Shown: piece after piece, positions 1 to 37,300 of the stretch
Position numbering within the stretch: the stretch's first letter is position 1
Layout: every line of letters begins with the position of its first letter
DNA from: a virus
Taxonomy: Duplodnaviria; Caudoviricetes
Virus record (IMG/VR): IMGVR_UViG_3300012953_000046
Span: 1-49,834 of that record
Length of the DNA stretch: 49,834 bases
Reading direction: 5' to 3' (one strand)
Translations under genes and position numbers: made by a program
Notes under the pieces: generated by a model
Seen by the model: only the letters and a program-made list of their open reading frames with translations
Database searches by the model: none
What the model was told of the DNA's origin: nothing

Positions 1-12
1 GAAATCAGACCT

Positions 13-300: not shown

Positions 301-313
301 GGAGGACAATTTC

Positions 314-541: not shown

Positions 542-589
542 TTCATATCACTAATTAACATTAACTCATTCTTCACTAATTAACAACAA

Positions 590-10345: not shown

Positions 10346-13300
10346 ATGTCACCGATAACAAAGAATATCAACGTCTCTGATAGAGTCGAGAGTCAGTTAC
10401 CTGATTTTATTCGGCAAGAAGACAGACAACTTGTCAACTTCCTGTTTGAGTATTATAAATCTCAGGAGAAAACTGGTAGACCTTATGATATCCTTAACAA
10501 TCTGTTAAGGTACCTAGATCTTGACAACTATACGTCGGAAGAGTTATCTAGTTCAACAAGTTTACTTAAGGATATTGGTGTAAGCGATCCTAAGATCGAA
10601 ATTGAGTCTATTGATGGATTCCAGGCTCAAAATGGATCTATAATGATCGATAATGAAGTCATCTACTACGAGGATGTAACTCGTGGTCCTGATGTCATCA
10701 TTACTCCAGGTATTTCGTTTCCACAGTTTAATAAGAAGAAGCAACAGTTAGAAAACCCATTTCCACTGTTCGATGGTGTTGAAACTGTCTTCCCAATGAG
10801 TTTCTTGGGTACTCCTGTAGCACCTCCTAGTGCAGAGCACCTTGTTATCATTACGTACAACACTATGTTAGTGCCTGGCACTGATTATAGTATTAATGGT
10901 CTAAATCTTGTCTTTAACGAACCACCTCGTGACAGAACTGGTGGAGATGATTCAGAATTTACTAGAGTTACATATTTGGTTGGTTATGCTGATCAAGAGA
11001 TCAAAGTTGCAGATACTATACCTTGGCAAGAGTGGCAGAATACAAAAATATACCCATTAAGAATTGATGGAGTTTCATATACTCCAACTTCTGAGATAGG
11101 ATTAATAATTAACAAAAATGGCAAGTTACAAGTACCATATGAGGACTTTACAGTCTTCCAAGACAAGGTTGTCTTTAAGAATGCCATCGGAGCTGCAGAT
11201 CTTATTCATATTAGGTCTGTTGAATATGTTGCTCCTTCATATGGGTCTGGAGCCAAGGCTATTGCTCAGGTTGACGACCTAGGTCAGATACAAGCACTTA
11301 TTCCTAAAGTTGGTGGTAGTAAGTATCGTTTAGACTTTAACCCAAAGGTTACTATTAGTCATAAGGAAGGTATTAACGCTACTGCTAAGTCATTAATTGG
11401 TGGTATTAAGGATGTTAACCTTCTTGACGGTGGTCAGGGTTATTCTTCATACAACCCACCTATTCCTGTAGTCGTTGTTCCTAATGATAGTAATGGTACT
11501 ATTGCAGAACTGGCACTAACAGTCAATGATGAGACTGGAATGGTCGAAACTCTTTCTATCACTAATAGTGGTAGTGGATATAACTTCATTCCTGCAATAT
11601 CCTTTAAAAACCCTGCTGGTGCGACTAATGGTGCTCCTACTATTGATGGAGAGGGTCGTGTTAACCTAGGAAGTATTGAAGTACTTACAATGGGTAGTGG
11701 ATATAGCAATCCACCTATTGTATACATGGATCCTGCACCTGAAGGTGGCATTAATGCACAGGCAGTAACAAAGATCAACCAAGATGGTCAAGTATACGAA
11801 GTACAAGTAGTTAATAGAGGTAGGGGTTATGTAACTCCACCTAGAGTAAAGATAATTGACCCAATTGGTGCTCAAGTCCTTGATGTAACTGTTGCATCTG
11901 GATCTGTTACCAATATTGAGATGTTAACAGGTGGTAGTGGTTATACTGATGCTCCATCTGTCTATATTGTTGATGATAGGAAGGATGGATACGGAGAACT
12001 AATAGGCGGTACTGGTGCTACTGCTGCTGCCACCATTTTCAACGGTGAAATCACTGATATCAACATTACCAACTTTGGTACTGGATATTCTGCTGAATTC
12101 CCACCTAAAATCTACATTGCTGATCCAAGATCTGCTAGAGCATCTGTAGATGTTGGTTTTGACCAAGTTACTGGTTTTGATATCATTGAGAAGGGATCAG
12201 GTTACTCTCCTAGTGCCTTCCTAGGGTGCTCCAGAGGCGTTTCTGGTCCTGTAGAGTATGATAACCTCCATAATGAGATATATGCTGGAGAAGCAGCTTT
12301 AAGGCAATCAAATCACCTTGCTGGTGGCACAGTTATCAATTTAGACACCCTTTTCATCAAGGAAGTCTTTGATAAGTTTAGAAGGCAGTATTTGCCTACT
12401 ATTGACATTGATTTTAGCGAAGTTAACCCTGTACAGGTCATTAAAAACATTAGTGACTTCTATGTTTCAAAAGGTACTAAATTAGCGACTCAATATCTCT
12501 TCAAAATCTTATTTGGACAAGATGTTGACCTTTATTATCCAAAAGATGAGATTATTAGTCCATCTTATGCTACTTGGGTTGTAGACACCATTCTTAGAGC
12601 AGAATTGATAGAAGGTGACCCTGTAAACCTATTAGACGCACAAATTAACCAATATGCCGACGCTGTTGACACTAGCGTAACGGATGCATCAGCTTTAATC
12701 GAAAATGTCATCACAATCATCGAAGGTACCGATACAATCTATGAATTGGCTATCTCGGAAGAAACATTGGTTGGGAATTTCATTATTCCTTACAAAACAC
12801 GTCTTGTTGAGCCTCTTACGACTACGGGTCAGATAATCACGGTTGACTCGACTATAGGATGGCCCGAAAGGAATGGTACCATTAGAATCAATGATCAAGA
12901 GCAAGTTCAGTATAAAGAGAAGTCCCTAAACCAGTTCATCGAGTGTACTAGGTCTAAAAACGGAGTTGTTGAAGATTGGGATCCTGGTACCATAATTCAG
13001 TCCGATATCTACATCTATACTAACTTTGGTACTGCAAATGAGTGTAAACTGAGAGTTCTTGGTATTGCAGAAGCAGGAACGACTGTTCTTAACAATACAG
13101 GTAGTTACTACCTCGGTGGAGACAAATTGAAGGTTGCAAACCTTGGATCCACTGCTGAAGAGCTAAGATTGCAATCTTGGTTGTATAATGTTAAAAAACT
13201 CATCCAAGTAACCAGTATTACTCCTGGTGGTGTTAATAACCAGACTGCGACTGTAGTTTGCGGTAACCCACATGGATTATTGGTTTCTGACCAAGTTACG

Positions 13301-16300
13301 ATCTACGGTGCAAACCCAGTTGTCTATAACGGCACATTTACCGTTACATCACGTATTAACGAGTTTGAATTCTCATATAGGATCAATACACCAACTGAGA
13401 TCATTCCAGCAGGTAATATCCTATTATCGGTTGACCTTAACAGAGGTAAGTCAGATGTAACCTCTATTAACAAGGTTATTAGTGAATTTACGACTAATAT
13501 CCAAAACTCTTTCTTTAATGACCAATATGTCTATGTTGCTGCATCTGGATTACCAAACTACAAGATAGGTCCATTTACAGGGTCAGCATTGATCCCAGGC
13601 AACCAAAGGAAGCTATTAAGATTCCCTAGGACAGTCCAAACTATATCAGAGCGTCAAACTATCAATCCAGGTACTCCAATCGGATCTTGGGTTAATGGTG
13701 TTTCTATCTGGTCTTACAAGTCAAGAGATTACGTACAGTATGGTCCTTTAACCAATATCAGTGTAACTAACAATGGTGAAGGTTATGATGCTGGTGCAAA
13801 ACCTAATGTAGAGATAGAAGGTGGTGGAGGAGCAAATGCAGCAGCAGAAGTTGTTGTAAATGGTAGTCTTGATAGTTTTAATGTTACAACTGAAGGTACT
13901 GGATATACTGAGTCACCTCTAGTATCAATCGTAGGTGGCGGTGGTATTGGTGCTACTGCACAAGCAGTTATCACTGGTGGTCGAGTTACTCGTATTCTAG
14001 TTGAGCAACCAGGTACAGGATATACATCACAACCTAGTGTTTCTATAACAGGTGGTGGAGGAGTAGGAGCAGAAGCAACTGCTAGTGTCCGTGGTCCAAT
14101 TCAAAGTGTTAATGTTACTAACTTCGGTAGTGGTTATACTTCACTTCCAGAAATTAAAGTTAACTCTGGTGAGAATGCTCTAGCACAACCAATCGTATTG
14201 AATGGTAGAATCGTTTCTATCGCTATTATTAACTCTGGTAATTCCTATACTACTGCACCTAACGTAATCATCAATGGTGATGGATTTGGTGCTATTGCAC
14301 AAGCAACTATCGGAACTATTGGAGAAGACAAAGGACGTGTTTTAGGTGTAACTATTACCAACAAGGGTATTGGGTATACACAGGGAATGACCACCGTTAG
14401 ACTCGAAGCAGTGGGTCAATTAGCGTCATTTGCACCTACAGTCTATCAGTGGAATAGAAACTTAGAATATGAATTAGGAGTAGAGAGTAACAAATATGAC
14501 TTCGCAAGAGGTTATGTATTCACTGGATATAACAACCAGTTTGGTGGTGAATATGCTCACCTATCAGATCCTAAAGAATTAAGATATGTTGTTGGTGATA
14601 ACGTATTCTTAAACCCTGTCACTCAGCAATTCCAAGAATTAGCATCTAACTTCGAGCACTCACCTGTTATTGGTTGGGCGTTTGATGGTAACCCAATTTA
14701 TGGTCCTTATGGATATATTGATCCTACTGATCAGAATAGTGGTATCAGAAGGATGCGTACGTCATACAAACAAAAAGAAAACGTTGTATATGATGAAGTA
14801 ACCAACCCTGATCCTTCAAGAATAGATGGTCCTCCTATTTCAACGTACCCTGCTGGTACATTTGTAGATGATTATTTCTATGACTTCCAGTCTGGTGACT
14901 TAGACCAGTATAATGGTCGTTTCTGTAAGACACCTGAGTATCCTGGTGGTACATATGCATACTTCATTACTATTGATGCTAGTGATGCAGGTCTTGCACA
15001 ATTCCCTTATATTCTAGGACCACAGTTTAACTCACTTCCTGATGCTTGGAACTTTACTCAGGCAGCAACACAAGAGAATATCCCTGATGGTGTTGTCCGT
15101 TATAGAGATCCATATACTGATGTTGATATTGATATTGATCGTCAACCAAACCAGACTGCTGATATATTCACTACTGAGATAGAAGGATATCCTATTATCT
15201 TTGAAATTCAGGATAGTAACAATGACGGTCTGATTGATGCTAATGAGCAACAAGAATTACTAGAGATGTCTGAAGAGGCAACTCTACAGATCTATGATTA
15301 CTTCCCAAGAGTATCTGCTGAGTCTAGAGTTGATATTGAAGTAGAAACAACTACTCAGTTTGAGAATGCACAGATTGATGGATTCGTTATTGAGAACCCA
15401 GGTGAATCATATCAGGTAGATGACACTATATTCTTCGATAATGAAGGTACTGGTGGATTCGGTGCATCTGCTATTATTGAATCTGTTAAAGGACAGAATA
15501 TTATTGGTTACCAGAAGGAAATCATTGGTGACCGTCCTTATGGTGTTATTACTACAGATATAGGACATGAATTAAGACAACAAGATGAGATAATTATAAA
15601 CTCACGTCCTGTTATCGATAATACCCAGAAGACCTTTAAGGTTAAGGTGGTAACAGGTGTTGAGAGTATTTCAGTTACTCAAGCAGGTACTGGATATAAC
15701 AATGATATCCCACCAACATTTGAATTAATAACACCTGCTGGTCAGGATGCTTCACTTCAGTTGGTACTTGAGAATACTGGACAGATTAATAAAGTTAATA
15801 TCATTAACTCTGGTAATGGATACGATTCTAATGATCCTCCTCAGATAAGGGTATCACATCCTCAGCAATACAAGAAGACTCGCTATTGGATTACAGAGTA
15901 TCTTGAGGCATCTGGTATCATTACCATACATGACATGGTAACGACTATAGAGCGTTACACTTATATTTGTGGTAGCATCCTTGAGACAGACGGTGACCAA
16001 GCAGGAATTATCGTCAAATTTGATGACCTAGGCCAGAAAGTTTGGGAGAGAAACTTACTACCTCTTAACTCAGGTACTAAGAAGGCAGAATTTATTAAGA
16101 TGCATATCGATGCTTCAGCAGAGAATGACATCATCTATATCGTTGGTCAAACATACGATCCTAATAATCCTAACTACAACCCTGACATTTGGTTAGGTAA
16201 GTATGAATCTGGATTCAATAATGCTAATGCTCCTGATGGTATCTTACTATGGCAGAAAGCAATTGCTGGTATCAGTGGTAGCACAAGAAGAGATTGGATC

Positions 16301-19300
16301 ACTTCTCTAGCACTAGACCAGGAAGGTCGTATCTATCTTGCAGGTTATACAGACAGTAATTCACCTGATCCTAATGATATGTGGATCATCCAGTGTAATC
16401 TGGACGGTGACCTTGTAGAGAAGAGAAAGATTGCATCTGCTGATGATTCAGAGATGATTAATCAGATTCAGTGGATATCTGATGACAGATTCTTCTTTGT
16501 TGGTGTTAACGATGATAATGATGATTGTATTTTCGGTGTATTCTGGTATGACGGTGCAAACCTTGAAATTGAATACATTAGACAGATTCCAACTCTAGGT
16601 GGATATGTAAGAAATCCTAAATTCACTGTTGATGAATATGGTGATTGCATCTTAGTTTGGGATGTTTATAATAGTGTCCTTTCTAAGTATGATAGGGTAC
16701 AAATAAGCAAATTCCCAATTGCAACTGCTAATACTCAGTGGGAATGGCAGAAGACAGTTACCGTTAGTGGTGCAATTGATTCAATCAATCATGCTGGTAT
16801 TAATGTAGATGTATTTGGTAACTATTCACTTGTTACTGATGTAATAGAAGCACAAAACCAAAGATACTCAGTTATTCATTATCTGAAGTATGACGGCACA
16901 GTAATTAAAGAGACTAAGATTGATGATACTGTAAATATCGGTTTTAAAGCTAAGACACATACAGTAGACAACTCTGGTGACCCGATCCTAGTACTTGATA
17001 GACAACAGTCTGATCAAATAGCAGCATATCGTTTCAATGATACTAACGATCTAGATTACGACTTTACTAAGCAGAATTTAGCAACAATGACGTTCTCGTC
17101 AGTACCTGATTCTACTTTTGATGATGCAGTTTATAAGTTTGGTAATGGATCACTTAAGTTAAGTGCTCCTTCTCCTGTTAAACTTGCTTCTTACGGAATG
17201 ACCGATAAGGAGTGGAGTTTCAGAGTATGGATGGCAATGAATACCACTGCTCATGCTACAAACCATAAACCACTTCTATTTGATGTTATTCCTGTTGCTG
17301 GTGATAGTATACAGGTTGAAATGGATGGTGATCAGAATAGTGCAAACTATGAGAAAGCAGTCCTTTATGTAAACTCAGTACAAGTAGCAACATCTGCTAC
17401 TGCTGTTAACTGGACTACATTCGGTAGTGCTCAGTGGGTACATGTTACCTTCCAGAAGAGAGAAGAGTCACTAGGTCTTTATCAATATGAGTTATTCTTG
17501 AATGGTAACTTAGTTGCTAACTTCCAGAGTACGTCAGATATTAGTGTTAATAACGTAGGTGTTGCTGGTAAGTATACTGGATCATCATCTGCTAACTGTT
17601 TCATTGGTAATATTGATGATCTTGTAATAGACAATATTGCTCCTTATAATACTGCATACTCTGCACCTGGTGAAGAGATTCCTGTTACTACAAATAATTC
17701 AGATTCTGTACTAATTAAGTTTGATAGACTTCATTCTAAGAGAGATAGTTACACTTTAACTGATACTACCAAGTATACAGATATATCATTTACAGATATT
17801 GAAACTGCAACTACATGGGCTGATTTAGGTCTCTCTGCACTATCTGCATGGACTCCTGGTGCTGGTGGTTTGCAGATTCTGGATATGTCCCAGGTCATTG
17901 CTACATTAAACCCAAGTAGCTATACATTTACCACTAATAAAGCTGAGTATGCTACTAAGACTTCTACTATTCCATCACCATTAGGTAAGAAACTTACTAT
18001 CTCTGCTGATGTTATTAGTAAGTTCTATATGCGTGATGCTCTCTATCAGAAGATAGACAACGTAATGGAGTTTACCTTCAGTCAAGATCTTAAGTTGACT
18101 AAGGGCACTATCTTACAACAGTTTAATGATGCTGGTGTTACTCAAGCATATGGTACTATTGTAAACGTCCCAGAAGGCACATTACTTCAACCTGGATATG
18201 GTAATAAGTATCAGGTTGGTAAGATATATGGTACATTCAATAATACAGATCGTTATAGGACTGTTGCTGGAGATGTAAACCAAATTGAAGGAACATACTT
18301 CGATACTATTGAAGAAGAGAATCCATGGGCATCAGGTACTGCATATGCTCTAGGAGATACCGTTTATAATGGTAAGAGAATTTATCAAGCACAAGGTGCT
18401 GGTACTTCAGGTACAATTGCACCAGTACACACAGCTGGTGTAGCGAGTGATGGCGTAATAAACTGGGCATTCCTTGATACATCAGGTAAGTTTACTATTG
18501 ATCTAACTCAACATCCATATCCTAGACCTCAGTGGACTGGAATGGATATGCCTGAGTGGTTACCAGATCGTCTCTACGTCGTTGGACAGAGAGTTTGGTA
18601 TAGGTTAAACATCTATGAAGTTGCAGCAGGTGGAGGCGGTGTTAGTGGTAATACAGCACCTATTCATAGTACTGGTGATGATACTGACGGTGGTGTAACT
18701 TGGACTCATATTTCTACTGAAGAAGCAATTAGTGTATACACTAGATTGATGGGTTATGACCAAGGTAACAACTACATGGTTCAAATCATGGAAGTTCAAC
18801 CAGGGTCTGTATACATTCCTGGAGACGTTGTTTCTATCAACTCTGGTAATATAGTTCTTGCTGAAGATGAGAAGAGCACTGAAATTGTCGGATTTGAATC
18901 AGTTAAAAAGATTCGTGTTACTGCACGTTTAGAGAAGGATATAATTAGATCATCTACTGTCAGAACTAACTACGTTTATTGCACATCAAATAGTGCTCAT
19001 AACTTCGGTGCTGGTAACATTATCTTCACTGAGGGATTCACTACGGCCCAGTTTAACGGATCATTCTTTATTGATCAGATTATGGGATCAAGAGAATACA
19101 CATTTGCTATTAGAGCAGTTGCTGATTCAGATCCTGCATTTACTAATAATGCTATTGCTGGTGTTAACATCTATGCAAAACACCCAACTTTAGATTTCAC
19201 TAGAAATCATCAGTACGTATTTGATCTATCTGATACTTCTAACTTTGGATATTACCTATCATTCTCTCAGGACAACCAGTATAAACTGGAATACTCCTTT

Positions 19301-22300
19301 AATAACATCGAGAGATCTGGTACTCCAGGTATTCCAACATCCCCAGCTCCATTCGTTAAGTTCTCAGTATTAGGAGATGTGACGAATATTTCCTATTACT
19401 TCGACCCATCACGTACTGGGGCGGACTCACCAGTAGGCGATAATAGCTTTATCGATGTAATCAAAACACCGTTTGATGGTACATTCAGAATATCAGAAGT
19501 ACCAACAGATACCTCTTTCAAATTCCAACTTGATAAAGAGCCTGAAAGGATGAATGCAGAGGTTGGAAATGACGAATTTGATCAACCATATTCATACTAT
19601 TCAACTACCTCTCTAAGAGCAGTTGGACCTATCAATACTATTCAACTGGTTTCTCCAGGTGGATTCTATCAGAAACTACCTATCATTAATGATATTGCAT
19701 CCTTCAGACAGATTGAGAAGGTTGTAGTTAATGATGGAGGTACTGAATATGCTCCAGGTGTCTACTATGATATCCCTATCTTAGGAGATGGTGAAGGTGG
19801 TAAGGCAACTATTACTGTAGAAGTTGATGACACTATTGGATCAGGTACTATTACTGCTGTTGCTGTAACTGACCCAGGTAAAGGTTATACAACTGCATCT
19901 ATTGACATAGACGCTATAACTGGAATATTAGGAGCAACTCTTGCTGGATCTGGTGGATCTGTAACTGTTGTTATTCCTTCAGAAGGATCTGGTGCATCTG
20001 TATTCTTAACAGGTACTAACATTGGTAAGATTAAGAGACTAAAGAATAATGAATTTGGTTTCGGTTATTCACATGACTATACCTTAAAACCAGAGATTAC
20101 ATTCCCTGTTAACCTACAACTCTTTAATACTTCAATACTAAGTCAGATCAAGATAACTGACCCAGGTTCTGGATATACTTCTACTCCTGCTGTTGTAATT
20201 GAAGGTGGTGGTGGATCTGGTGCTGAGGCATTAGCAATTATCAAGAATAACAGACTTTCTGAGATTACTATTAAGAATCCAGGTTCAGGTTACTCATCCG
20301 AACCAACTGTTACTCTTAAATCAGAATTTAACTACGTTGTTAACTTAGACCTTAACTATCTACAGTTTAACTTCCCACATGGTATAACCACTGGTGCAGA
20401 AGTCCAATTTAGATCTGATGATGTTGGATCAACAGTTGGTGAGTTACCAAAACCAAGTACCGCAGGTTTAACCAGTTTGGTTGCTGGACAGACATATTAT
20501 GCAATTGCTGGTGAAGCATCTGGTCTTGAGCCTGATCAATTAAGATTCGGTCTTACAAAAGCATCTGCACAAGGTGGATCGTACGTTACCTTCTTAACTC
20601 AGGGATCTGGTAGACAGACACTTTTAACTGAGGTATTTGGTGGTAAAGCAACTGCTGTTGTTGAAACATCTCGTTTCTTAGAAGGAGAGACAGTATATCA
20701 AGGATCTTCAATAGAAACACAAACTGCTATCGGTAAGGTATCTACTAACACTGGTTGGCAACTTGGTCCTAAGATTCTTAAGATCGTTGATTACACTGGT
20801 GACTGGGCAGAAGGTGAGAGAGTACAGGGTGAGATATCCAAGGCATCTGGTATTATCGATAACTTCTCTATTGCTCGTGGTGTGCTGAATATCGGCTCCC
20901 TAACGAAGACACCAGGCCGATTTATTGATGACGTTGGTAAGCCTTCTGAGATTGTCCAGAAGATACAGGATAGTTTCTTCTATCAGAACTTCTCATATGT
21001 TGTTAAGTCTGAGATTCCTATCACAGAATGGAAAGCACAAGTATTAGAAAATAACCACCCTGCTGGTTTCAATATGTTTGGTCAGTTACAACTGACTGGT
21101 GGTAAGGACGTATCTGGTCGTAAGATTGGTACAGAATTTACGAAGAAAGTTAATATACAAAACTATAGTAATGTAAACCAGATTACATCATTCGGTGCTG
21201 CACAACCAATATACACCGATTATAACAATACTGAGGTTCTCTTCCGTAAGAAGCGTTTGACTTCTTCTGAGGAAATCTTAACTTCTATTGTTAAGAAACT
21301 AGATGATATCTCAGGTCAGTTTAATGGTATTGATAAGCAATTCCCAGTTACTGTTGAGAATGAGCAAGTCATCGTTAAGCAAGATCAGTTGATGATTACA
21401 CTTAACGGTGTTATCCAGTCTCCTGGTGAATCCTTCACAATCGTTGGTGGTAACATAGTATTTGCTGAGCCACCTAAACCACCTTCTAAAGTTAACTATA
21501 GAATCTTAGGAGTTACTCCTACACCTATCTACAGAATTGCACTTTACCAATCTGGTGGTACTGCAAACTATGGTATTTTCCCATCAATAGGACAACAGAT
21601 ACAAGGTGAGAGTTCAGATGTTGTTGCTACAGTTATTGATTCAGGTACTAATCATCTAGATGTCATCAATCTAGTTGGTGGTACGTTTGATCTTAATGAG
21701 CAAATTGTAAGAGGAGAAATCTTCGCTGCATTAGTAGAATCTGTTACCCTAGTTAACTCAGAGACTATATTTGAATTCGGTGAAGCAGTTACTAACCTAG
21801 AAGGTGACACTGCTTATATTGAAGAGACTAATATCACTACTGAAGGTGTTATTACTGACCGTCTTGTTGTAAGTAAGACTTCAGGTACTCCTAGATTTGA
21901 AACTGGAATATTTGACCTTAGACTTAATGAGTACATCTATTCTGCCTCATCTAAGATTGCAGGCCAGATTACATACATCGCACCTTATACAGATCCTGTA
22001 ACTGGTGACCCTGTTGATGAATTAATCATTAACAAAGGATCTACCTTCTTTGGATTACTATTTGAGCGTTTAGTTTCTCTAACTAACCCTAATGTCATCC
22101 TAGACGACATTTCACAATCTTCCATTACTCCTACTGAGCTTAATAACTCTGCTGAAAGAATTAATGCTGATTTCCTCGATTTTGAAGAAGTTAGGACTAC
22201 TGAGATTACATATTCTCAACTTACTGGTGGTGTGCTTGAAGAAGGCGAAGTTATCAGAAATAAGAAGGTTATTTACGGAAATCCAGTTTCTGCCTTCCAT

Positions 22301-25300
22301 GGAATCGCTGCAAACAGATTCTTAGATGGAAAACGCAATATTGCTAATAATAAGCAAGTAATCATCGATTTCGCTGAAGCAAGCATTGCTGTTGAGTTTG
22401 AAGACTACTATTTCCCATCTGACATTATTACTAACTCTTGGAGTCGTTATAAGGACGCTTACAGGTTTATTCAGAAGAATAGAGCACTTATCATCGGAAT
22501 GGCTTTCGATGACATGAAAACTCAGTATCCTGGGTCTACTATTCCTTCAGATGACAAATGTAAGAGAGATATTGGATTATTTGTTGATGCTATCTCTATT
22601 GACGCATATTCAGGTGGAAACCGCTATTCTCGTAAGTTTATTCAACAATTCTTCGATACTAACGGTAATCTAACTTATGTTAATGCACAAGCTGCTGAAA
22701 CACGCTTTGCATACGAAAAGGCTAAAGATCGTTGCTTAGTTGCTATTACTAACGGTTATTCAGGTACAATCAACGCTGTTAACTCTGGAGACTCTTGGGT
22801 TGCTTATCAAGACCTTACAATCACTGCTGACCCTTCACCTAACGATGCTTACGGTACTGCTGGATCTAATACCTCCAATACTGATTCTGAGAACTGCTCA
22901 GACGTACAGTCTGCACTTTCAACACTTTGGGAGTTTATAGACGAAGCATTAAATATTTCTTCTCTAACTGAGCTTCCTGATGAAGCAGTGGGTGAATATT
23001 CACCTCATCAAGAGAAGTGCCGTCGTGACCTTGGATACATGATTGATTCTATTGCAGAAGATCTTGGATCTGGTGGTAACTATAATACCGTTGAATTTAC
23101 CAAAAAATTCTTCGATGCTGCTGGTGTACCTCTAACTAACGGTATTGTTGGAGAAGAGACAGAAGCAGTCTTTGCATTCAACTCTGCGAAGACATTAATG
23201 TATCAGGCGATTAATAACTTGATGTATTGGAAGGAACTCAATACTGCTGGTTATAACCTTAATGATCCTACAACTTACTCTGGTGGTGTTGCTCCTGCTC
23301 AAACTTACGATGCAAACTATGCATCTGGTAATAATCAGGATATTAACAACTGTGCTAACGTTAAATCTTATGTTGACACTTTAGCTGGTCTTGCAACAAC
23401 TGCAATGACTGCTGGTAACTTAACCAACATTAATAACCTTGCACTTGTTTCTGACGGCACATTTGTTGCTAATGAAACTGTAAGGACTACAAAACTTGCA
23501 TTCAAGGATAAGTCAACTGGATTATTCATTACTAACGATCAAATTAAGGGTATTACCTCTGGTGCTGTATTCAGTGCAATTGGAGTTAATTCTGGTCTTA
23601 AGTGGTTATTTGCTGGACCAATTACTGGTACATTCCAAAATGGCGAATATCTAACTAATTCCACTCTTACAAACACAAATTGCTCTCAAAGTGTAATAAT
23701 CAAGAAAGCTGAGTTACAGGGAACTAAATCGATCTTAATTCCAAGTAACGGTCAAATAGTCTTTAATGAGAGTAAAGATTTTGAATTTGGCACTGGAGAC
23801 TTCACAATTGAAGGATGGATCCGTCCTGGTGTCAATGTTGGCACACAGGTAATTGTGGACTTCAGAAGACTATCTGCTGCTAATGGATTGAATATCCTAA
23901 TGGATGGTCAGAAATTGAAGGTATATAACGGCACGACCAATACTATCCTTAGTACAGATGTATTTGCGACTACTGGTACTTGGTATCATATTTCAGTCTG
24001 TAGATCAAGTGGTGTTACACAGGCATTCGTAAATGGATCACAAGTTGGATCCAACTACGTTGATACTAATGATTACCTATATGGTGGACTAAAAGTTGGA
24101 GCAGACTTTAACCTAGCAAATGGTTGGAATGGTCATATTGATAACTTTGTTGTTAAGAAAGGAGTAGGTGATCGTCAAGCAAACTTCACTTCACCTAATA
24201 CAATTGATTATACTCTTGACACTATTGTTGCTGGTCTAGATGGTGAAGCACCATTTGTTTGCTCTACTACTGACTGTTATGCTACATTCTGTGGTCAGAA
24301 TTCTTCATCTGCAACTGCTAAGTCTGTTGATTATGCAGATAGAGATATCATTGTAGAAGACGTTGATACTGGTAGAGCAGAGCAGAAGAGATGTGCTGAT
24401 ATAATTGACCTTAATGGTGCTTGGATTGCAGAAGAAGCAGTCGGTAGAATGAAGGTTGCATTCCCAGACTTTACTATTCGTGGTGATGATCCTGGTAATA
24501 ACATATATGGTGGTACTAACCTTTGTGTAAGAGATACTAAGGATTACATTCTTGGTGCTCTAATTAAAGACCTTAGAGAAGGTGGAGATTTCCATACAAT
24601 CTATACTGCAAGGACTTATCTAACTGCTAGTGGTAAATTAGATCACATCGCTGCTGAGATTCTACAGTCTCTTTATACTTGGAATGAAGTATTTAAGATT
24701 GTTAATGTAGTCATTACCACAACAAGTACTGATCTAAGTGGTGAGTATAGCACTAGATTGAGAATACCTAATAACTTCTCATCTCCTGCTTCAAGTGCTA
24801 CAACCGATGAGATTGCCACTTTAGGAGATAACCTACTTAAGGTTGTTGCTCCTATGGATCAGAGATTCAGAGAAGGTGGTTATCAACTTTGGAAGAATAG
24901 AGATTATATTGCAGAAGAGGTTGCTGGTTATATTCAAGACAAATATGAGAAGGATATCGATGGTATCACATTTGACTTCCTTGAGATGCCTGGATATGGA
25001 CAACCATATTGTGAAAGAGATATTAAAGACTTCATACTTCCTGCTGTAATTGCTGACCTTGCTACAGGTGGCACATATCAGACTGAAGCAGTTATTGATA
25101 AGTATCTTGATAATCAGAATAATGTCATCCATGTTGAAGCTGAGCTTAATCCAATGCTTGATGCATTTGATTATACTAAGATGCTCTGCTTAAAGGCAAT
25201 TAACAACTTGTTAATGTCTCCAGGAGAAGCGTCTTCTGAGTTAGGAGCTGGTGCACCAACATATACTCAAGAAGAGTATTATTCACCTCAGTGGACTGCT

Positions 25301-28300
25301 AGATCTTCTTACAGAGATGAAACTATAGTACTTGACACTGAGGCATATCCTCAAGGTCCAACTGGTAGAAACTCTAATGACAGATATCTTGATGCTGCTG
25401 ACGTAATCTGGAATAACAGAAAGATTATTTCTAAGGAATGCGTAGCAATAATGAATGACCTCTCTAAGTTTGAGAATCTACAGATTCCTGGTGGAGCAGT
25501 CAATTGTGAAGATGACGTACTTGATATGATTGAGGCAGCGGTACATGACCTTCGCTTCGATTGTAACGAGAAGACATATGATGCTGCTGCATTGTATATT
25601 GAGACAGAAAATAACTCACTTAAGCATATTGAAGGTGAGTGGGAAGCATCTATCACTGTAGTTAAGATATTGAGAGATATCATGACAATGACAATGCGTA
25701 ATGCATTTGGTAGAGATTATATTGAAGGCACTGATCTACAGACAACACCAGTACAATCATATGAGCAAAACCCACGTGAGGTAATGTATCAGAAATGTGG
25801 TGATGCTATTGATGGCAATATCAGATATATCGCAGAGCAAGCAGTTGCTGCTGGATTAGTCCAATTCCCTAACTTACTCATCCCAGGTGGTCCTGCTAAC
25901 TGTGTGCATGACGTTACTGATATCTTAAGATCATTAGCGTTTAACCTTAAGTATGGTGGTAACAACTGGATGCAGTATTCTGCTGAATTCTATACCACTT
26001 ATAATGGTGCTTTAGATCATGTTGCTGCTCAGTCTACTGAGACCATCTGGATCATGAATAAGGCAAAAGAATTTGCTCTTCGTGCAATGAAAGGCCAGGT
26101 TATTACAAATAACGCTGGACATAATATTGATCAAAGATTCTATGATGCTGTCCCAAGACCTAACAATTCACTATTCAATTCTGTTGCTGATACAGGTATT
26201 ATTACTGGACAACCTAATAGTCTTGTAACTAGATCATTCATTGCTGGTGAAGATAAGATTTCTACAACTGATAGTGGCACTGGAATTGTAACTTCTGAAG
26301 ATGCAGTATTCCGTTGTGTTACAAAACTACCTTCTTCACCAATAGACTGCTGTTTATTTGAAGCAGGTGATTCAACATCTGGTGTTTGGTTAGGTATTAG
26401 AGATAGTGGTACATATTTCAGACTAAGAGCTGGTGATGGCACTAACGCTTACACTGGTGGAGCAAACAATAATGATAATGGTCTTGCAATGCTTGACCTA
26501 CAAATCAGTGGTCTATCTTCATACTTTGATGATGGTGACCACGAGATAGTATGGGAGATCCGTATTGGTGGTAATATTACTACTGGTAGTGGTAGAGTAA
26601 AACTTTGGATTGACGGCACACCTATTGGTGAAGCATCAACTCCTGGTGCTAGCTACACTGGTTTAACAGGTGGTGGTGGAATATTTGCTTCTTCTAACTT
26701 CGCTGGATATGCGATTGGTGGTGGATCTTTAGTTAACGGTGAAAGTGCTTCAATTAATACTTTCACAATTAATGTTGGTCCTGCTCCTAAGATTGAATAC
26801 GACATAACACATGCTGCTTATGATAGTAGTAATGGTGATATGGTAATGACCGTGGGGTCACACAACCATACTGTTGGTACTTTCTTATCACTTGCAACTA
26901 ACTCTATAAACTTCACATGTGATCAAGATAACAATGCTTCAACTCATTCTTATCCTAGATCTGGTGACCCAGCTGGTAATGCTGCTGTAGAAGTTATAGC
27001 AGTTGGTGCTACTGCACATACTATAGACTCTGCATCATACAATCCTGAGAATGGTAGCATGTCAATTACTCTACCTAATCATGGTATGAGCGATTCTACA
27101 TTGCATACTATATCTGATGCTACTTACGATCCTGATACTGGATTATTAGTATGTCAGTCTACTGCACATGGATTCCAAACTGGTGATCAAGTACAAATTA
27201 AGAATGGATCTCTAATCTTTACTTGTGCACAAGATAATCATAATACTAAGCACGGTTATCCTAGAGCGAAGGATCCTGCTGGTGATGCTTGGATGTTGGT
27301 AGAGCAAGTAACTACAAATAGTTTCACTGTTAACGTTGGTCAAACACCTAAGATCGAGTATGATGTATCTGATGCAGATTACAATCAGATAGATGGTGAA
27401 TTAGAATTGGAAATTGGTCAGCATCGTTTCGTTGGTGCTACACATCATGTTGCATCTCATGCTGAATATACTGCTGATAAAGGACTTCTAAAATTAACTG
27501 TTAGTGGTCATAAGATTACTAAGGGTGAGCAGATTCAGATCTTTGATAACTCCATGACATTCACATGCTCCATGGACAACTATTATAGTGAGCATGTATA
27601 TCCTAGATCTTCTGATCCTGCATCTGACAAATGGTTAGATGTTGTAGAGTCTGATATTCCTGGTGGTACGTTTACTGTTAACGTTGGAGTATCTCCAACT
27701 GTAGGTTGGAATCCAACTGCTGCATCATTTAACTCTACTACTGGTCAATTAGAATTGACAGTTGGATCTGGTCATGGTCTGACTACAGGTACTAATATTA
27801 AGATTGCATCTCAGTCATTATCATTTACTTGTGACATGGATGATAACAAATCTATCCATTCATATCCTCGTCACGTTGACCCAATACACAATGAGCCAAC
27901 ACCTATTGTTGGAGTAACTAATACAACAATTATTGTTAACGTAGGTAAGACACCTGAGCAACAATATAATGTAAGTAATGCAACATTTACTCCTGCTGAT
28001 GGTAAGTTAGTATTAACAACAGATAGAAAAACAACTCTTCGTCAATCTTCAGAGCATAGTATAGCTGGTGCGACATTTGATGGTCAAACTGGATTAATGA
28101 GATTGAAGGTTACTAACCACGGATTCTCTGCTGGAGATTACGTTAAGGTTGCTGACGGTGGAGTAAGTTTCACCTGTGATATGGACCAAAATTCTTCAGT
28201 CCATGCATATCCAAGAGCCACAGATCCAATGAGTGATAAGTGGATGGATATTAGAAATGTATCTAAAGATGAGTTTGATGTATATGTTGGACGTACTCCA

Positions 28301-31300
28301 CAAATTCCATTCTTAGCAACTGCTGGTGAGTTTGCACCTCTAACAGGTCATTTAAAACTAACCATTGGTGATCATAATCTATCTTCTGGAAAGAATATTA
28401 TGTTAGCAAAAGAAGCAATAACATTTACTTGCTTCTTAGATGCTCATCAATCACCACATGCTTATCCTAGATCAACTGGATCAAATTATGTTGGTAATGG
28501 TGGTGCTGACCCATTCTATAACAAGCCATGCCCAATCATACATGATGGATCACCTTTAACTGCAACTACAGGTACTTCATATAATCCTACAACAGGTATT
28601 ATGACTGTTGCTTGTGATTCTGCTCATGGAATGAGCAATGGTGATCAAGTTAAGTTTAAAGAAAATGCAGTAACATTCACCTGCTTAGAAGATAACAATG
28701 GTACAAACCATGCATATCCTAGATCTGGTGACCCATATGCTAATAGATGGATCACAGTATCTAATGTAGGTCTCTATACATTTGATGTCCAAGTATTAAG
28801 TTACGCTCCTTCAACTAACACTACTACTCATACATTCGTGCAGGGTAGCAGTGGTGGAATCACTAAGAAGGATGGCACAATTACTCTTGATGTAGGTGCA
28901 TCTTCAGATACTACAGATCATATCTTTGTCCCACATCCAGGTTACACTCCAAGCACTATCGTTTATAACCCAACAACAGGTGTTATGAACCTAACCATTA
29001 ATGGTCATGGATTCGAGAATGGAGATAAGATTAAGATTGATGATAATGCATTGACATTTACATGTGCAATGGATAATCATGCAACTGATCATACTTACCC
29101 TAGAGCATCTGATCCATCATCAGGAAAATGGTTAACAGTATCTAACGTAACTGAGCAGAGTTTTGATGTCCAAGTATTAACAACAATTCCTCAGAGTAAC
29201 ACAACTCTACACACATTTAAGAGTGCTAATCCTAACTGTGTTAAGAGAGCATCATTCATCTCTGGTGGAATCTATAACCATACTTACTCAACATCTGTTA
29301 CTAATTGTGTTAGACATGCTGGTGATAGTGTAAGAATTAAGGATAACGGTTTAACATTCAAGTGTGCTGCTGATGGTAACTCAAGCAACCACTCATATCC
29401 TCGTTCTGCTGTTACTACTCATACACCAACTAGCGTTTCTTATGATCCTGTTATTGGACGTATTAACTTCTATATTAACAATCATGGATTCCTTCCATTC
29501 TCACATATTAAGATTGCTGATAATTCACTACTCTTCACATGTAAGAAAGATGCAGATTCTACTGGACACCAGTATCCAAGATCTACAGATCCTATAAGTG
29601 GAAAGTGGGTACCTATTGTAGATGTTACTGCTAACACATTCAGTGTTGAAGTACTTGATGTTATTCCATCTACAAATACTACTCAACATTCATTCGTATC
29701 TTGTGATAATAACTGCATAACTCATAAGAAGGATCACTTCTACGATACTAACATTCCTGTATGGGAAATTGGTGAAACAGATCATACACCTTCTACTATT
29801 TCATACAACCCAACTGAGGGTAGTATGCAGATTACGGTTGCTAATAGTTTCGCAGGACCTAATGAGCTTACACCTAGTAATGTTACATTCTATCCTACTA
29901 CAGGTATATTAAGGTTAACTCAGAATGGTCACACTGTGAAGAATGGTGACATGATGATGATCAGAGATAGCGTCTTTACATTTAGATGTGATAAAGACAG
30001 TCAAGCATCTGATCACCTATATCCAAGACCTTCTGATCCTGTTTCTGGTAAGTGGTTAAAGGCATTTAATATTGGTAGTAACACATATGATCTACAGGTT
30101 GGTAATCTTTATGGTGACTCACCTATCTCTAATACTACAACTCACGTTTGTACAGTCATTCAAACTGGTGCAATTTATCATGCAAATGACTTTGTAAGAT
30201 TTGATGAGAATGCAATTACATTTACTTGCAGTAAGGATAACAATCAAACAAACCATACTTATCCAAGAAGATCTGACCCAACATACAGACAGTGGTTACC
30301 AATCCGTAATGTAAGTGCTACTGGATTCTCTGTCCAAGTTGGTAAGTCTGCTATTAATGATGTATACGATCATCAATTCGTTTCTGTTGATCCTAATTCA
30401 TTACATAGACAAACTGGTACTGTTACACTTGATGTTGGTAATGGTCAAATTACTAACCCAACAACTCATGTATTCCAAAGTGCTGTAAGTGGTGCATTAG
30501 TTGCTGGTGGTCAGTATGCTCATACCTACATTCCTGGTACTGAGACTTATACTGTAACTGATGCTAACTATCTACCAGCTACAGGTATGATGACCTTGAC
30601 AATTCCTAATCATGGATTCCATGATGGGGAGAGCATCAAGATCAACAATAACTCTTTAACATTCAGATGTTTACAAGATAGTTTGGGTAGTGATCATTCT
30701 TATCCAAGAAGTAGCGATCCTGTAAGTGGTAAGTGGATAACAATTTCCAATTGCACAGATAACACATTCGATGTCCAAGTACTTGAGAATGTCCCATCTA
30801 CAAACACAACATTACATCAATTCCAGTCTGCAACTCCTAATGGTGTTACTAGAGCACAAGTTGTAACTGGTGGTAATTACAGTCATAAGTTTGTTGCTCC
30901 TTCACAACTAACACCAACCAACGTTGCTTATAATCCATCAACAGGTATTATGACCATAACTTCTACGAAGCATGGTCTTAAGAATGGTGGAAGGATTAAG
31001 GTACAAGATGGATTTGTTACTATGACCTGCACACAGGATAGTAATCAAACTAATCACTCTTATCCAAGAGCATCTGACCCATATAGTGATGAGTGGATGA
31101 AGGTAAGTAATGTCACAGAAGATACATTTGACGTACAAGTATTATTCAATATTCCTTCTTCTAACACTACTACTCACACATTCGTATCAGCAGTACCTAA
31201 GAGTATTACTGTTGCGACATTAATGAAGGGTAATGATAGTATTAAGATTGCTGCTAATTCTCTAACATTCACATGTGCTAAAGATGGCAACTCTACTAAC

Positions 31301-34300
31301 CACACATATCCAAGACTTACAGATCCAGCATACAACAATTCATTAAGAATTATTGATGACGGTGTAACAAGACATACTCCAACTGGAGCAACTTATACTC
31401 CTTCATCAGGTACGTTGGTGATGACAGTAAGTAAGCATGGATTCTCTAACGGTGACTTCATCAAGTTAGATGATTATGCTTTAGATATGACTTGCACAAT
31501 GGATGATAATTCATCTAACCATGCATATCCAAGAGGCACAGACCCTGTAAGTGGTAAGTGGGTACAGATTACTAACGTAACTACTGACACTCTCGAAGTG
31601 AACGTTGGGTCAACTTCTGCTGCTACATTCACACCTACTGATGCTGATTATGATGCTTATACAGGAATTCTTGACCTTAATATTGGTAATCATTCACTTA
31701 AGCAAGGACAGCATGTTAAACTTGCTGACGGTGCAGTCACATTTACATGTGATATGGATTCTAATGGATCTCAACATGCTTATCCAAGAACAACTATTGA
31801 TTCATTCACTCCTACAGGTGCAGACTTTAACGGTGAGACAGGTTACCTGACTCTTACCTTAGAGAATCATGGAATGGATAATGGATCTCTTATTAAGATT
31901 GCAGACAATGCATTGTCATTGAATTGCACAATGGATGGTAACACATCTACTAAGACATATCCTAGATCTTCTGATCCTATCAGTGGTAAGTGGAAGACAG
32001 TAGAGAATAAGACAGACAATACTATTGATATCTTTGTTGGTAAGTCTGAGTTTAGAAGTTTCGATCCTCAGAATGTATCATACAATCAGTCTAACGGTAA
32101 TATGGTAATTACTGTTGGTCCTGATCATGGTATAGAAGTTAACGATAGCATCTATATCAATGAGTACTCGATGACATTCACTTGTGCTCAAGATAATCAT
32201 TCATCTGATCATACATATCCAAGAGCAAATGGTGTTGGTGGTGCAACTGCTAATGACCCTGCATTCCGTGATGCTGTTAATGTTACTGCTGTTGATGATA
32301 GCACTATTACAATTAACGTTAACTCATCACCTAGTGGATCTTCTAATCACGCTCATATCTTCAAACCTGCTGTAGGTAGAACACCAAGTAATGTAACTTA
32401 TAGTGGTGCATCAGGTGTTATGACAATTACCATGGAAGACCATGGAATGCTAGATGGTGAGCAAGTGATGATTGAAGATAACGCTTTGATCTTTACATGC
32501 TCTAAAGATGATCATGCAACTGAGCATGCTTATCCTAGACATGGTGATCCAGCAAGTAATAAGTGGTTAACAATTTCTAACGTAACTCAGGATACATTTA
32601 GAGTTGTAGTATTAGATAAGATTCCTTCTACTAACACATCTACACATACATTTGTAACTGCTAAGGTTAACTCAATCCTAAGAGGTACAATTAGAAAGGG
32701 TGGATCATTCTCTCATACATTTGTTTCTGCTGTCGGTGGTGGTGTAACTCATAAGAGAGACAGAGCATATGATCATTCTATAGAAATTAAGGATGTAGGA
32801 CATGCAGAATACACAGCATCTGGTGCAGCATATAATGCTGAGACTGGTGTATTAACATTAACTGTTTTAAATAACCCATTCAGTAACGGTAATAGAATTA
32901 AGTTGAAGCCAAACTCAATCACAATGACTTGTGATATGGATGGCAATGCTACCAACCACTCATATCCTCGTGAAGGAATTGACCCATCATATGATAAGTG
33001 GTTAGAGGTATCTGGTGTTTCTGGTAATAACCTTAACGTCCAGATCGGTACTACAACTCGTGCTAACTATCTTGTTTCTGATTCAACATATGATCCTACT
33101 ACAGGTGATATGACACTTAAGATTGGACCTCATGGTTATCATGGTGGATCCTCTCATACTATCACTAATGCATCATATGATCCTATCTCAGGTGATATGG
33201 TATTGACCATACCTGCTCATGGATTTACTATCGGTGATAGAGTTAAGGTCGCTCCTGATTCACTTTCATTCACATGTGGAATGGATGGAAATACATCTAC
33301 TAAGACATATCCTAGGACAACAGATCCGAAGTATAATCAGTGGATGACCATCAGTGATATAACTCATGACACATTTAAGGTCAACGTAGGTACTTCACCT
33401 CAGTCGTCACATAACGTAACAAATGCTAACTACAACCCAACATCGGGTGACATGGAGTTAACAATTGGATCACATACTTTAGACGTTGGTGATAGTATAA
33501 GAATTAAACCTAATTCATTGACATTCACTTGTGATTTCAATGGAGATGGTAACACAACTAATAAGACATATCCAAGATCATCTGGTGCTTCTACTGCAAA
33601 TGGTAAGGACTATGCATATGACACTGCTCTACCAATCAGTGCTAAGACTGCTACAACAATCACAGTTAATGTTAATGGAAATCAGGGAGCAATCACTGAC
33701 GTAACGACACATAACTGGGCAGGTGGTACGTCTGCTGGTGCTGTATTCAGTGGTGGTGGATATGCACATACATTTATCAATGCTGGTATTAATGGACTTA
33801 AGGTTTCTCATGAAGCAATATGGATCGAAAATGAGTCATTAGTATTCAAGTGTGGTTTAGATTCATTCGCAACTGAGCACAAGTATCCTCGTGCAAACGG
33901 TCAAGGTGGTGCTTCTGCTGATGATCCATACTATGATACTTCTATTCCAATTCAAACAGTTACTGCTGATAGCATAACAGTTAACGTTGGTATTTCTTCT
34001 AATATTTCTGATCATACATTTGTAAGATCTGAGAATGCATTCACACCTACAGGTGCATCATTCACACCTGGTAGTGGAGCATTAGTATTAACAATTGCTG
34101 GTCACCCATTTGCTAATGGAGACAAGATTCAGATTAAGGATGAGTCTATCGTATTCAGATGTCAGCAAGATAGTTACGGAAGTAATCATGCATATCCTAG
34201 AAAACAGGATCCTGCGTCTAACAACGCATGGTTAACTGTTACCTATATTGATGCTAACTCTTTCTCAGTTAACGTTGGTACTTCTTCTAACACTACAACT

Positions 34301-37300
34301 CACCAATTCCAGTCTGCTGAGACAGGTGCAGTTATTAGAGGTGTTGTTAAGGGTGGTGGATCATATACCCACTCATTCGTAAGTGCACTAGCTGATGGTA
34401 TTCAGTGGGAGAATTCAACAATTAAACTTGATGTTGGTGAATCACATGCTACTGGATATGGAGTATCTGCTGCATCATTCGTACCTGGTACAGGTCTTCT
34501 TACAGCAACAATCGGTAATCATCAGCTTAAGGTTGGTAATTACGTTAAGATTGCTAACAAGTCAATGGTCTTCCGTTGTGATCAAGATGGTCAGGCTTCC
34601 GATCATTGGTATCCACGTCCTACAGGATTTGGCGGTGCTTCTGGTAATGACCCTGCATACAATAATAGAGTTGAGATTACTGCCGTAACAGGTAATACAA
34701 TTACAGTTGACGTTGGTACTTCCTCTAACACTACAACTCATGCATTCCAGAATGCTAACTCTACCTACAACACAAGGACTGCATCATACAATCCTGGTAG
34801 TGGAGTAATGACACTTAGTATTCCTAAGACTACTAAGACTGCTTCGGGTGCAGCATACAACCCAACATCTGGTACTTTAGAATTAACAATTGGATCTGGT
34901 CATGGTCTGACTACTGACGATACTATTAAGTTATTACCTAACTCATTAGTATTCACATGTGATTATGGTGGAGATGGCAACGTAACTCAGGAAACATATC
35001 CTCGTGCTGCTGGTGCTGCTACATCATCTGGTGCTGACTACGCATACGATGCTGAGTTGGATATCACTGCTACAAGTGCATCAACAATCACAGTTAACGT
35101 TAACGGTGGTCAAGGTGCTGTTACTGACACAACTGCTCATGTATTCCAGTCTGCTACTGCAAATGGAATCTTGGTTGGAAACGGATTCATCAACGGTGAG
35201 TACGTTAAGATCGCTGACGATTCATTAACATTCACATGTGGTAAAGATAACAATATTACTAACCACTCATATCCTAGATCTTCAGATCCTTCAAGTGGAA
35301 GATGGTTGAAGATCTCTAATTGTAATTGTGATACATTTGATGTCCAAGTATTAAAAGACATACCTTCTACTAACACAACAGTACATAACTTCGTTTCATC
35401 TACTGCTGCTAACGTAACAAGATCTGTTATTACTATCGGTGGTGAGTATAACCATACATTCCATTCTGCTGCATCTAACGGTGTAACAGTTGGAGGTAAC
35501 TATACACATACATTCGCAAGTGCGAAAAATAACAGTTTACATAGACAGTCTGGTAAGATTACAGTTGATGTTAACATCGCTCCTTCTTCTGCTGATCTAT
35601 ATGATCATACATTCGTAAGTGCTCTAGCTGGTGCTGTTATAGGTGGTGGTAGTTACAGACATACCTTTGTATCTGCTGAAACAAATGGTGTTATTAAGGC
35701 AAATGATTATGTCATGTTTGATGACTTCTCATTAGGATTCACATGTGATCTTGATAAGGATGTTACTCCTCATACATACCCAAGACCTACTGACTATGCA
35801 AGTAACCAATGGTTACCAGTACATAACGTAGCTACATCTACATTTGATGTTGGTGTATTAGGATTTGATATGATTCCTTCTACATTCCTAGGAACTCATA
35901 CATTCTCACATGCTAAGAAGAAGGGTCTTAAGAAGCAAGACGGCACTATTACTGTTAACGTAGGTAAATCTCCAGCTGGAAATACATATCAGCATACATT
36001 TGTAAGTGCTAATGCTGGTGCTCTAGTTCAGGGTGGTAATTACAGACATACATTTGTATCTGCTGCTGCTAACTGTATTACTGTTGCCAATGATGGTACA
36101 CAACTAACACCTACAGACGCATACTATGAGCCTACAAGCGGTCAGTTAACTCTAACTGTTGCTGGTCATAGTCTTGGAACTGATGATTCTGTCGTTATCG
36201 CAAGTAATTCATTAACCTTTACTTGTGCACAGGATAGTAATACTACCAACCACACATATCCACGTATTACAGACTTTGCTGATGGTATGAAACTACCAGT
36301 GCAGAATGTTAAGTCATGGGCATGGCCTACAAGATCTGATCTTGATTACTATAGATCACGTCTAGTTGATCCTGCATATACTGGCAATGAGTCTTCTGCT
36401 GTAGAAAATGAAATTGGTAATCTTGTTACCTTCGCAACAGATGCATTCAGTAGTCCTAATACTATTGCTGGAAGATCTTACACCCTACCAACTGTATGGC
36501 CTGTTAAGTATACTCCTGATGTAGTTGCTAGAGATTTAACAATCACATACGATACATCTGGTGGTGGTCAAGATGCTAATGGTAACTGGGTTGGTACATG
36601 TAATGAAACTGCTTCTGCAATTAGCACAATTGCTGACATATACATTCAAACTATATCTCAAGCACAAAATAATAATCAAAACTATCTTGTTAATAACGTA
36701 ACTAAGACATTCCCATCTGCTTATACTAATACAGTATACCAGTCAGGTACATGTTATAACGTCCAGTCTGCAATCGATACCTTATTCGATAGCATGACTA
36801 GCACTCTCGGTGCTGGCACATATAATAACAAGATTATTGCTAATATGATCCTCTTTAATCAGCAAGCAATTGCTGGAAGAGCATTCGCTGATACACAAGC
36901 AAGTTATCCAACTACTACCTTAACTATTGACTTCTGTAACGATGTCCTTAAGGCAGTACGTTATGACTTGATTACTGGTGGTAACGCTGGATCATTCTCC
37001 CTAACACAACTATGGTTTGACGGTGAGGGTAACTTTATTGCATTCCCAGATGTTGTTAGATCTCAGATTCTATTTGCTCTAACAAGATGTAGAGAATACA
37101 TTAAGAGCATCATGTATCTTGCTGTTGCTGATAGTGTATGGAGTCAGTATGATGTATGGCAACCAACTGATAGACTTGAGTGGAATCAAGAAGCAGTCGA
37201 GTTTATAATTGACTCTTCACTTAACCCTATTGAGTTTGCTCTAGAGAGATCACAATTCCCAACAGAAGCAAGAGTCACATTCGTTGCATCTACTGATGCT

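Follow-up and report, generated by a model that had tools for sequence, protein, structure and literature searches.

The stretch of DNA analyzed here, IMG/VR record IMGVR_UViG_3300012953_000046 (Duplodnaviria; Caudoviricetes), comprises 49,834 nucleotides and is called the window below. It carries the baseplate cluster of a marine T4-like cyanophage, in which a single open reading frame (ORF), 10346..40114 on the plus strand, encodes a giant virion structural protein of 9,922 amino acids (aa). This protein is a member of phrog_701 and occupies the gp7 position, between gp6 and the YHYH/gp9/gp8 genes. According to the ORF list, all of the nested features lie inside this one ORF. They comprise helical units, each with an opening helix (opener), a core with a CxRD helix, a D.TIT.D strand and a closing helix (closer), together with LamG-like and beta domains, as follows.

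22307..22441 (+): opener of unit 1; Asp39-equivalent in 34/34, model residues 1-30 helical
22442..22990 (+): unit 2, a complete phycobiliprotein-like domain between the unit 1 opener and CxRD helix; globin chains lie on model residues 43-216
23015..23440 (+): remainder of unit 1, from CxRD helix to closing helix; 4xxi_A across model 1..369, Z 14.3, root-mean-square deviation (rmsd) 2.0 Å over 117 residues
23777..24154 (+): LamG/concanavalin-like domain between the two nests; Pfam PF13385, E 2.6e-14
24371..24853 (+): unit 3, uninterrupted; in the window protein it lacks both the Asp39-equivalent and the closer Cys
24863..25375 (+): unit 4, with opener, core and D.TIT.D-type strand, for which closer 3 is the closing segment; profiles, un-nested homologues (3/3 scored) and model
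25379..25750 (+): unit 5, with opener and core, closer 2 supplying the rest; phycoerythrin beta superposition, un-nested homologues 4/4
25751..26167 (+): unit 6, with opener, core and strand, closer 1 supplying the rest; contiguous with closer 1 in 40/77 homologues; PF00502 E 0.02, below cut-off
26168..26752 (+): split LamG-like domain, N-terminal part, inserted in unit 6; L029 residues 3917-4127, 46%, E 8e-60
26753..36325 (+): 30 YPR beta domains in a branched nested tree; a circularly permuted domain encloses the other 29, to depth 10
36326..36385 (+): split LamG-like domain, C-terminal part; matches L029 from residue 4119 onward, as a continuation of the N-terminal part
36386..36520 (+): closer 1, which gives unit 6 its helix H; Cys is absent from it in the window protein and present in 25/53 homologues
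36533..36720 (+): closer 2, which gives unit 5 its D.TIT.D strand, Cys155-equivalent and helix H; Cys 53/53
36743..36811 (+): closer 3, which gives unit 4 its Cys155-equivalent and helix H; Cys 53/53
36812..37240 (+): unit 7, divergent; closer undetected by profile

The units were parsed with generic profiles of the opener (O), core (E) and closer (K). These profiles read units 1 and 2 as O O E K E K (O at 22313 and 22442, E at 22556, K at 22886, E at 23015 and K at 23345). In this order the whole of unit 2 lies inside unit 1, which resumes at its CxRD helix, as a sequence-only reading of the window had proposed, with coordinates that agree with the parse. After unit 3, three O-E pairs without a closer follow at 24863, 25379 and 25787; generic-profile closers appear at 36386 and 36743, and then unit 7. 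The middle closer (36533-36670) falls under the generic-profile threshold in the window and scores 100 bits with the orthologue profile, and in S-WAM1 and S-SZBM1 the generic profiles find all three closers consecutively. Profiles and homologues thus bear out the earlier observation that units 4-6 have no local closer and that three distal closers stand in a row about 3,400 aa further on. That unit 5 lacks a local D.TIT.D strand, which closer 2 carries instead, can be seen directly in the sequence. The earlier reading of one nest across more than 14 kb gives way to two separate nests, the first made up of units 1-2, with its closure reached by 23410, and the second of units 4-6.

The sequence-only reading had asked for a comparison with shorter, insert-free homologues, and in these the closers do lie close to unit 6. 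For example, S-WAM1 and S-SZBM1 align to the window protein through residue 5265 and resume at about 8650-8675, with almost nothing between. When 142 proteins were parsed, 77 distinct stretches contained units 4, 5 and 6 and closers 1 and 2 in order. The gap between unit 6 and closer 1 was 12-35 aa in 40 of them, 217-237 aa in 24, 739-1,517 aa in five and 2,967-3,404 aa in eight. Since the order is kept while the gap varies, the arrangement is not due to chance. In un-nested distant homologues, the closer of the unit 5-like unit scores best as closer 2 (4/4), that of the unit 4-like unit as closer 3 (3/3 scored; three further unit 4-like units gave no scored closer) and that of the unit 6-like unit as closer 1 (1/1). 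These natural pairings, together with the model described below, agree with the last-opened, first-closed order that had been predicted (6 with first, 5 with second, 4 with third), the last pair being the weakest in the model. A host domain is broken by a whole guest, and guest-free homologues exist; the homologue series and the predicted models likewise sustain the proposal of recursive domain insertion with a chain running out and back. At the level of sequence comparison, the nesting, the closure order and an insert-length series from about 20 to 3,400 aa are demonstrated, and we regard the nesting of domains in the giant protein as very secure. As a separate observation, beta domains are inserted in the unit 6 opener loop of P-TIM40 (L003, aa 5660-5990) and in the unit 5 core of P-RSM6 (L004, aa 5745-6160), which points to several reusable insertion sites.

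Structures were predicted with AlphaFold2 (AF2) for natural contiguous sequences as monomers, namely the stretch from unit 4 to closer 3 of the insert-free homologue L040 and units 1 and 2 of the window. The L040 model (603 aa, 53 sequences) had a predicted local distance difference test score (pLDDT) of 85.1, with closers at 80-95, and a predicted template modelling score (pTM) of 0.84. Globin-fold chains are placed on it at about residues 320-486, which is unit 6 with closer 1 (VIA rows also 322-323..485), and at about 169-555, which is unit 5 with closer 2. Residues 29-177 of phycoerythrin beta superpose on model residues 168..550 (unit 5 with closer 2) at an rmsd of 2.1 Å over 140 residues (Z 16.8). 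The model of units 1 and 2 (pLDDT 81.9, pTM 0.85) gave globin rows at 1..369 for unit 1 and 43..216 for unit 2. In these predicted models the split halves of a host refold as one domain, weakly so for unit 4 with closer 3, and units 4-6 with their closers are predicted to form one compact block. A Foldseek search with the 603-aa L040 model returned no match at E <= 0.001, its top rows being phycobiliproteins, and a search of the Atlas with unit 2 returned no usable match.

Several points weigh against the nesting as drawn for units 4-6. Unit 4 with closer 3 appears in the L040 model as a single globin row (3..600, Z 5.9), and several rows span 3..550 at an rmsd of 6.6-7.1 Å. We read the latter, in the model, as X/Y helices superposed on the unit 4 opener, the ranges alone being no proof. 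Furthermore, the model is that of a homologue 42-51% identical to the window per segment, superposition ranges give the first and last residue only, and the closer pairings have margins of 2-8 bits, with unit 5 and unit 6 profiles scoring close together. Closers of unit 3-like units in un-nested homologues mostly also score as closer 3. Some superposition rows even run from unit 4 to closer 2, as would be expected if the closers completed the units of a neighbouring chain, or paired in another order, by domain swapping in an oligomer. The AF2 models are monomeric, and baseplate proteins, as known from T4, occur in six or more copies, both of which leave room for such swapping. However, the 12-35 aa linkers of the short homologues, the natural un-nested pairings of units with closers and the violation-free parse of the beta insert argue against it, and we consider it quite improbable.

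The first domain of the insert in unit 6 is split in the window, and L029 has it in one piece. The LamG-like character of this domain is a lead only (10/30 Atlas matches, score 0.94), and Pfam gave no match to it. Within it lie the 30 copies of the YPR beta domain, which consists of five ordered elements; compared with sequences in the Protein Data Bank (PDB), this domain gave no convincing match. Ten complete domains served as seeds for scoring matrices, which picked out 138 beta tokens in the insert versus one in the 6,716 residues outside it. Once a false token had been discarded and the outer, circularly permuted domain set aside, the remaining 134 automatic tokens parse as nested brackets at a lower-bound cost of 11 (11 unseen tokens), and none of 389 block shuffles did as well. 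After 11 weak tokens were added by hand, the cost fell to 0 at depth 10, the minimum among 277 shuffles being 12; in an earlier shuffle test with unstripped tokens, 1/380 was as good. Four long homologues and L096 parse at or near the lower bound, and P-RSM6 and L137 had no clean parse (nested cost 9 and 12). Tandem, non-nested beta repeats were rejected, costing 51 versus 15 for nested repeats with unstripped tokens and 43-48 versus 11-15 in four homologues. The total depth amounts to 15, from three globins, the LamG-like domain, the permutant and ten further levels. Domains 4, 7 and 18 are among the points where the tree branches. The single double-stranded stalk that had been imagined for the monomer does not fit, as the 3,190-aa beta insert forks and the three helical units form a compact predicted block (pTM 0.84); a branched tree appears to describe the protein better. 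A third repeat type (G..I.G..SGA.A.V-like) also seems to be split around the globin and LamG blocks (21300-22300, 23440-24370 and 37240-39500), so that nesting may reach outward past 15 levels.

The identity of the helical units had been overlooked by the sequence-only reading. A profile built from 28 complete units gave phycobiliproteins or their derivatives in 59/60 rows shown (best E 2.3e-5), and in the VIA structural comparison of the L040 model all 50 rows shown were phycobiliproteins, nearly all of them beta chains. The models thus predict the globin-like fold of phycobiliproteins, which serve the host as light-harvesting pigment proteins, and the units are almost certainly phycobiliprotein-like globin domains of phycobiliprotein ancestry. 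The CxRD motif aligns with the Cys82/84 site of solved chains, and the opener Asp aligns with beta Asp39 inside the 6jpr_B stretch that is significant. A second, sub-threshold stretch places the closer Cys at beta Cys153/155, and this placement is supported by structural ranges that reach the chain end. Among homologues, the Cys84-equivalent is conserved in 53/53 for units 4 and 5 and 52/53 for unit 6, and the Asp87-equivalent in 53/53 for each of the three. The closer Cys is present in 53/53 for closers 2 and 3 and in 34/34 for units 1 and 2, and the opener Asp39-equivalent in 50/53, 51/53 and 40/53 for units 4, 5 and 6 and in 34/34 for units 1 and 2. The Cys153/155 and Asp39 pair is found accordingly in units 1, 2 and 5 and in most unit 4 sequences, and is missing from units 3, 6 and 7 of the window. 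The homologues with a closer 1 Cys (25/53) form one clade; covariation of this Cys with the unit 6 Asp was rejected as independent evidence, being one change on the tree. In phycobiliproteins, the chromophore at Cys153 is bound through its pyrrole nitrogens by beta Asp39 (PMC6614406), and T-type lyases attach bilin at Cys-beta155 (PMC2327270, PMC10452541).

The units resemble phycobiliprotein beta subunits (CpcB, CpeB, cryptophyte beta; PF00502) in their predicted fold, with Z 16.8 and an rmsd of 2.1 Å over 140 residues; they also have the CxxD motif that marks the Cys82/84 site, and equivalents of Asp39 and Cys153/155. Unlike these subunits, they have no X/Y helices, show 13-19% identity, stay under the Pfam cut-off and are repeated and split in a 1-MDa phage protein, the likeness coming from sequence and models. 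Bilin biosynthesis-associated globins (BBAGs) are likewise distant phycobiliprotein homologues with a CXRD motif, and they bind bilins outside the antenna (PMC10151467). In contrast to the units, BBAGs are stand-alone bacterial proteins, and the available text of that source describes no phage or virion members and no second, 155-type site (PMC10151467).

The distribution of cpeT, whose role in cyanophages has been called unresolved (PMC3037559), offers a lead on bilin attachment. In 19 genomes, units and cpeT were both present in 12 and both absent in six (P-SSM2, S-SSM7, S-SM2, S-CRM01, S-CAM9 and P-TIM68), units occurred alone in one and cpeT alone in none. Fisher p values were 0.002 for 14 genomes and 0.0003 for 19, with kinship ignored. 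In S-WAM2, S-RIM44, Syn1 and S-PM2, cpeT lies shortly upstream of unit-bearing tail genes. Syn1, tabulated as lacking cpeT in PMC3037559, has a clear cpeT (W07:C1:19950-20462, E 1.5e-35) about 1 kb upstream of its unit-bearing tail gene. A complete relative, G001, whose units are 77-87% identical to those of the window, also has cpeT. Separately, S-WAM2 (L035:7759-22038) and S-RIM44 (L039:9393-21446) carry paralogous tail proteins just downstream of cpeT. These hold deeper pure-globin nests, with four consecutive openers in L035 and three in L039, followed by core-closer pairs.

Taken together, the protein may best be explained as a T4-like cyanophage baseplate-region protein with nested phycobiliprotein-beta-like globins closed in reverse order, likely a branched bilin-carrying appendage, an explanation that we hold at even strength. 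Each unit would be one globin domain without the N-terminal X/Y helices. Two loops would receive guests: the one that joins the opener to the CxRD helix, as for unit 2 in unit 1, and the one between helices G and H, as for unit 5 in 4, unit 6 in 5 and the LamG-like domain in 6; the last helix of the host would return once the guest has folded. Insertion of this kind could allow tree-like growth of the outer part and still leave a short load-bearing path, and the beta and lectin-like domains of the tree might serve host-surface contact. The opener Asp and closer Cys would rebuild the beta-155 bilin site that T-type lyases serve in host phycocyanin, and this site would form only once an opener has been joined by its closer, which lies thousands of residues further along the chain. 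The phage CpeT lyase could then attach to the units a bilin synthesized by host or phage, and UV or oxidative shielding and light-dependent adsorption are candidate roles for the pigment. For bilin carriage by the virion we see an evenly balanced case. More tentatively, and somewhat short of even, most marine T4-like cyanophages may build a branched, self-nested appendage of the baseplate or tail on captured phycobiliprotein beta domains, loaded by CpeT, so that pigmented virions are shielded from light or sense it.

A number of findings speak against this explanation or against full membership of the units in the phycobiliprotein family. Arg86 is replaced by Asp in unit 5 (52/53) and by His in unit 6 (53/53). 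The beta-155-like site of the window protein is complete just in units 1, 2 and 5, with Glu in unit 4 and no such site in units 3, 6 and 7, and no counterpart is known in the units for the alpha-chain residues holding ring D. Three PF00502 matches miss the gathering score (16.6, 15.2 and 18.3 bits versus 22.2), and most units have no match. The N-terminal X/Y helices are lacking, low-rmsd alignments beginning at chain residue 25-34, and openers directly abut the previous unit. S-SKS1 has a complete two-Cys unit without detectable cpeT, and neither Pfam nor PHROGs identifies as CpeT the gene found there at the usual position of cpeT. The 19 genomes are related and were hand-chosen, with seven known unit carriers and four from the no-cpeT list, and their count excludes the window, itself a 49.8-kb fragment. 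In S-SKS1, a phrog_3318 hypothetical gene (L155:5266-5766) stands at the cpeT-like position, upstream of the unit-bearing tail fibre.

In a rival explanation, the same nesting consists of pigment-free structural spacers, with Cys kept for disulfides, metal binding or packing. The decayed sites of units 3, 6 and 7 and the S-SKS1 unit without cpeT agree with such spacers, as do the invariant Cys of the beta domains and the similar Cys content of the two repeat regions (1.5% vs 1.3%). However, both Cys and both partner Asp positions are conserved together, the two Cys sites of the host phycobiliprotein fold are too distant for an intra-domain disulfide, and the co-distribution and adjacency of cpeT would need another explanation; we regard spacers as possible, if doubtful. 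In a further alternative, the units mimic phycobiliproteins so as to bind something of the host, be it phycobilisome parts, lyases or free bilin, while virions are assembled or the cell is lysed, with no pigment in the finished virion. A fold nearest to beta subunits and the occurrence of the family in cyanophage tail proteins are in keeping with mimicry, which nevertheless appears improbable, as the X/Y helices used for alpha/beta contacts are lacking and the units are buried at the base of the nested tree.

Recursive insertion and bilin-binding globins outside the antenna are already known (PMC13114784, PMC10151467). In the Si3 insertion of RpoC2 in cyanobacterial RNA polymerase, hybrid-motif domains of one family are inserted recursively through six levels and close in reverse order, as in the window protein, and six levels were the maximum in a survey of 2.7 million domains (PMC13114784). 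Compared to Si3, the window protein has about 15 levels, three folds and 3,900 aa, is branched and belongs to a virion. In addition, its relatives vary 100-fold in insert length, and one of them, P0002, has ten consecutive globin openers. Our literature search, limited mostly to the main texts of openly accessible papers, found no description of cyanophage virion proteins with domains that are nested or phycobiliprotein-like; tables of virion proteomics could bear on this point. The nesting is more than double the survey maximum in PMC13114784 and raises the question of folding during translation, and the natural insert-length series shows how such proteins grow. If the proposed bilin attachment is true, phage cpeT gains its missing substrate. 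A virion protein with a T-lyase target site makes the role of cpeT directly testable on cultured phages (S-PM2, Syn9, S-WAM1 and P-TIM40, with P-SSM2 and S-SSM7 as natural negatives).

The unit profile matched 940 cluster representatives. Among the best 150 of these, 12 proteins had at least four consecutive openers; P0002 had ten and P0005 seven, followed by core-closer repeats, openers and closers were exactly balanced in P0007, P0015 and P0016, and many others were read as cores only by these profiles. Five proteins of 3,700-6,400 aa (P0013, P0014, P0018, P0023 and P0028) showed 20-30 core-like matches with few openers or closers and possibly form a divergent, perhaps non-phage, repeat family. 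The helical region matches 357 phage records, all but one named Synechococcus phage, cyanophage or Prochlorococcus phage.

The genes around the giant ORF follow the order of T4 at the gp7 position, after gp25 and gp6 and before gp9/10 and gp8:

7827-8240: gp25, upstream of gp6 (Pfam/PHROG scan)
8242-10341: gp6, directly upstream of the giant ORF
downstream of the giant ORF: YHYH, gp9/10-like, gp8 and DUF4815 genes

As to homology with T4 gp7, the matches were limited to PF23786, below cut-off (E 3e-4), and PHROG wedge families. S-WAM1, S-SZBM1, P-TIM40, P-RSM6, S-RIM2 and Syn9 have orthologues at this position with lengths of 6,076-8,573 aa, the window copy being 1,350-3,850 aa longer than the annotated orthologues compared. 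The T4-like cyanophage gp7-position proteins of phrog_701 (P-SSM4 gp7, Syn9 'putative fiber') share the synteny of the window; relatives in this family are 42-61% identical to the window protein across the N-terminal 2,600-4,400 aa, and their records are annotated just as structural protein or wedge initiator. By the Pfam scan, YHYH domains occur both in the giant protein (14540-14980) and in the next gene (40123-41715). In the N-terminal half of the protein, G.GY..P.V repeats (11240-12230, 13740-14320 and 19690-20330) look interleaved rather than tandem.

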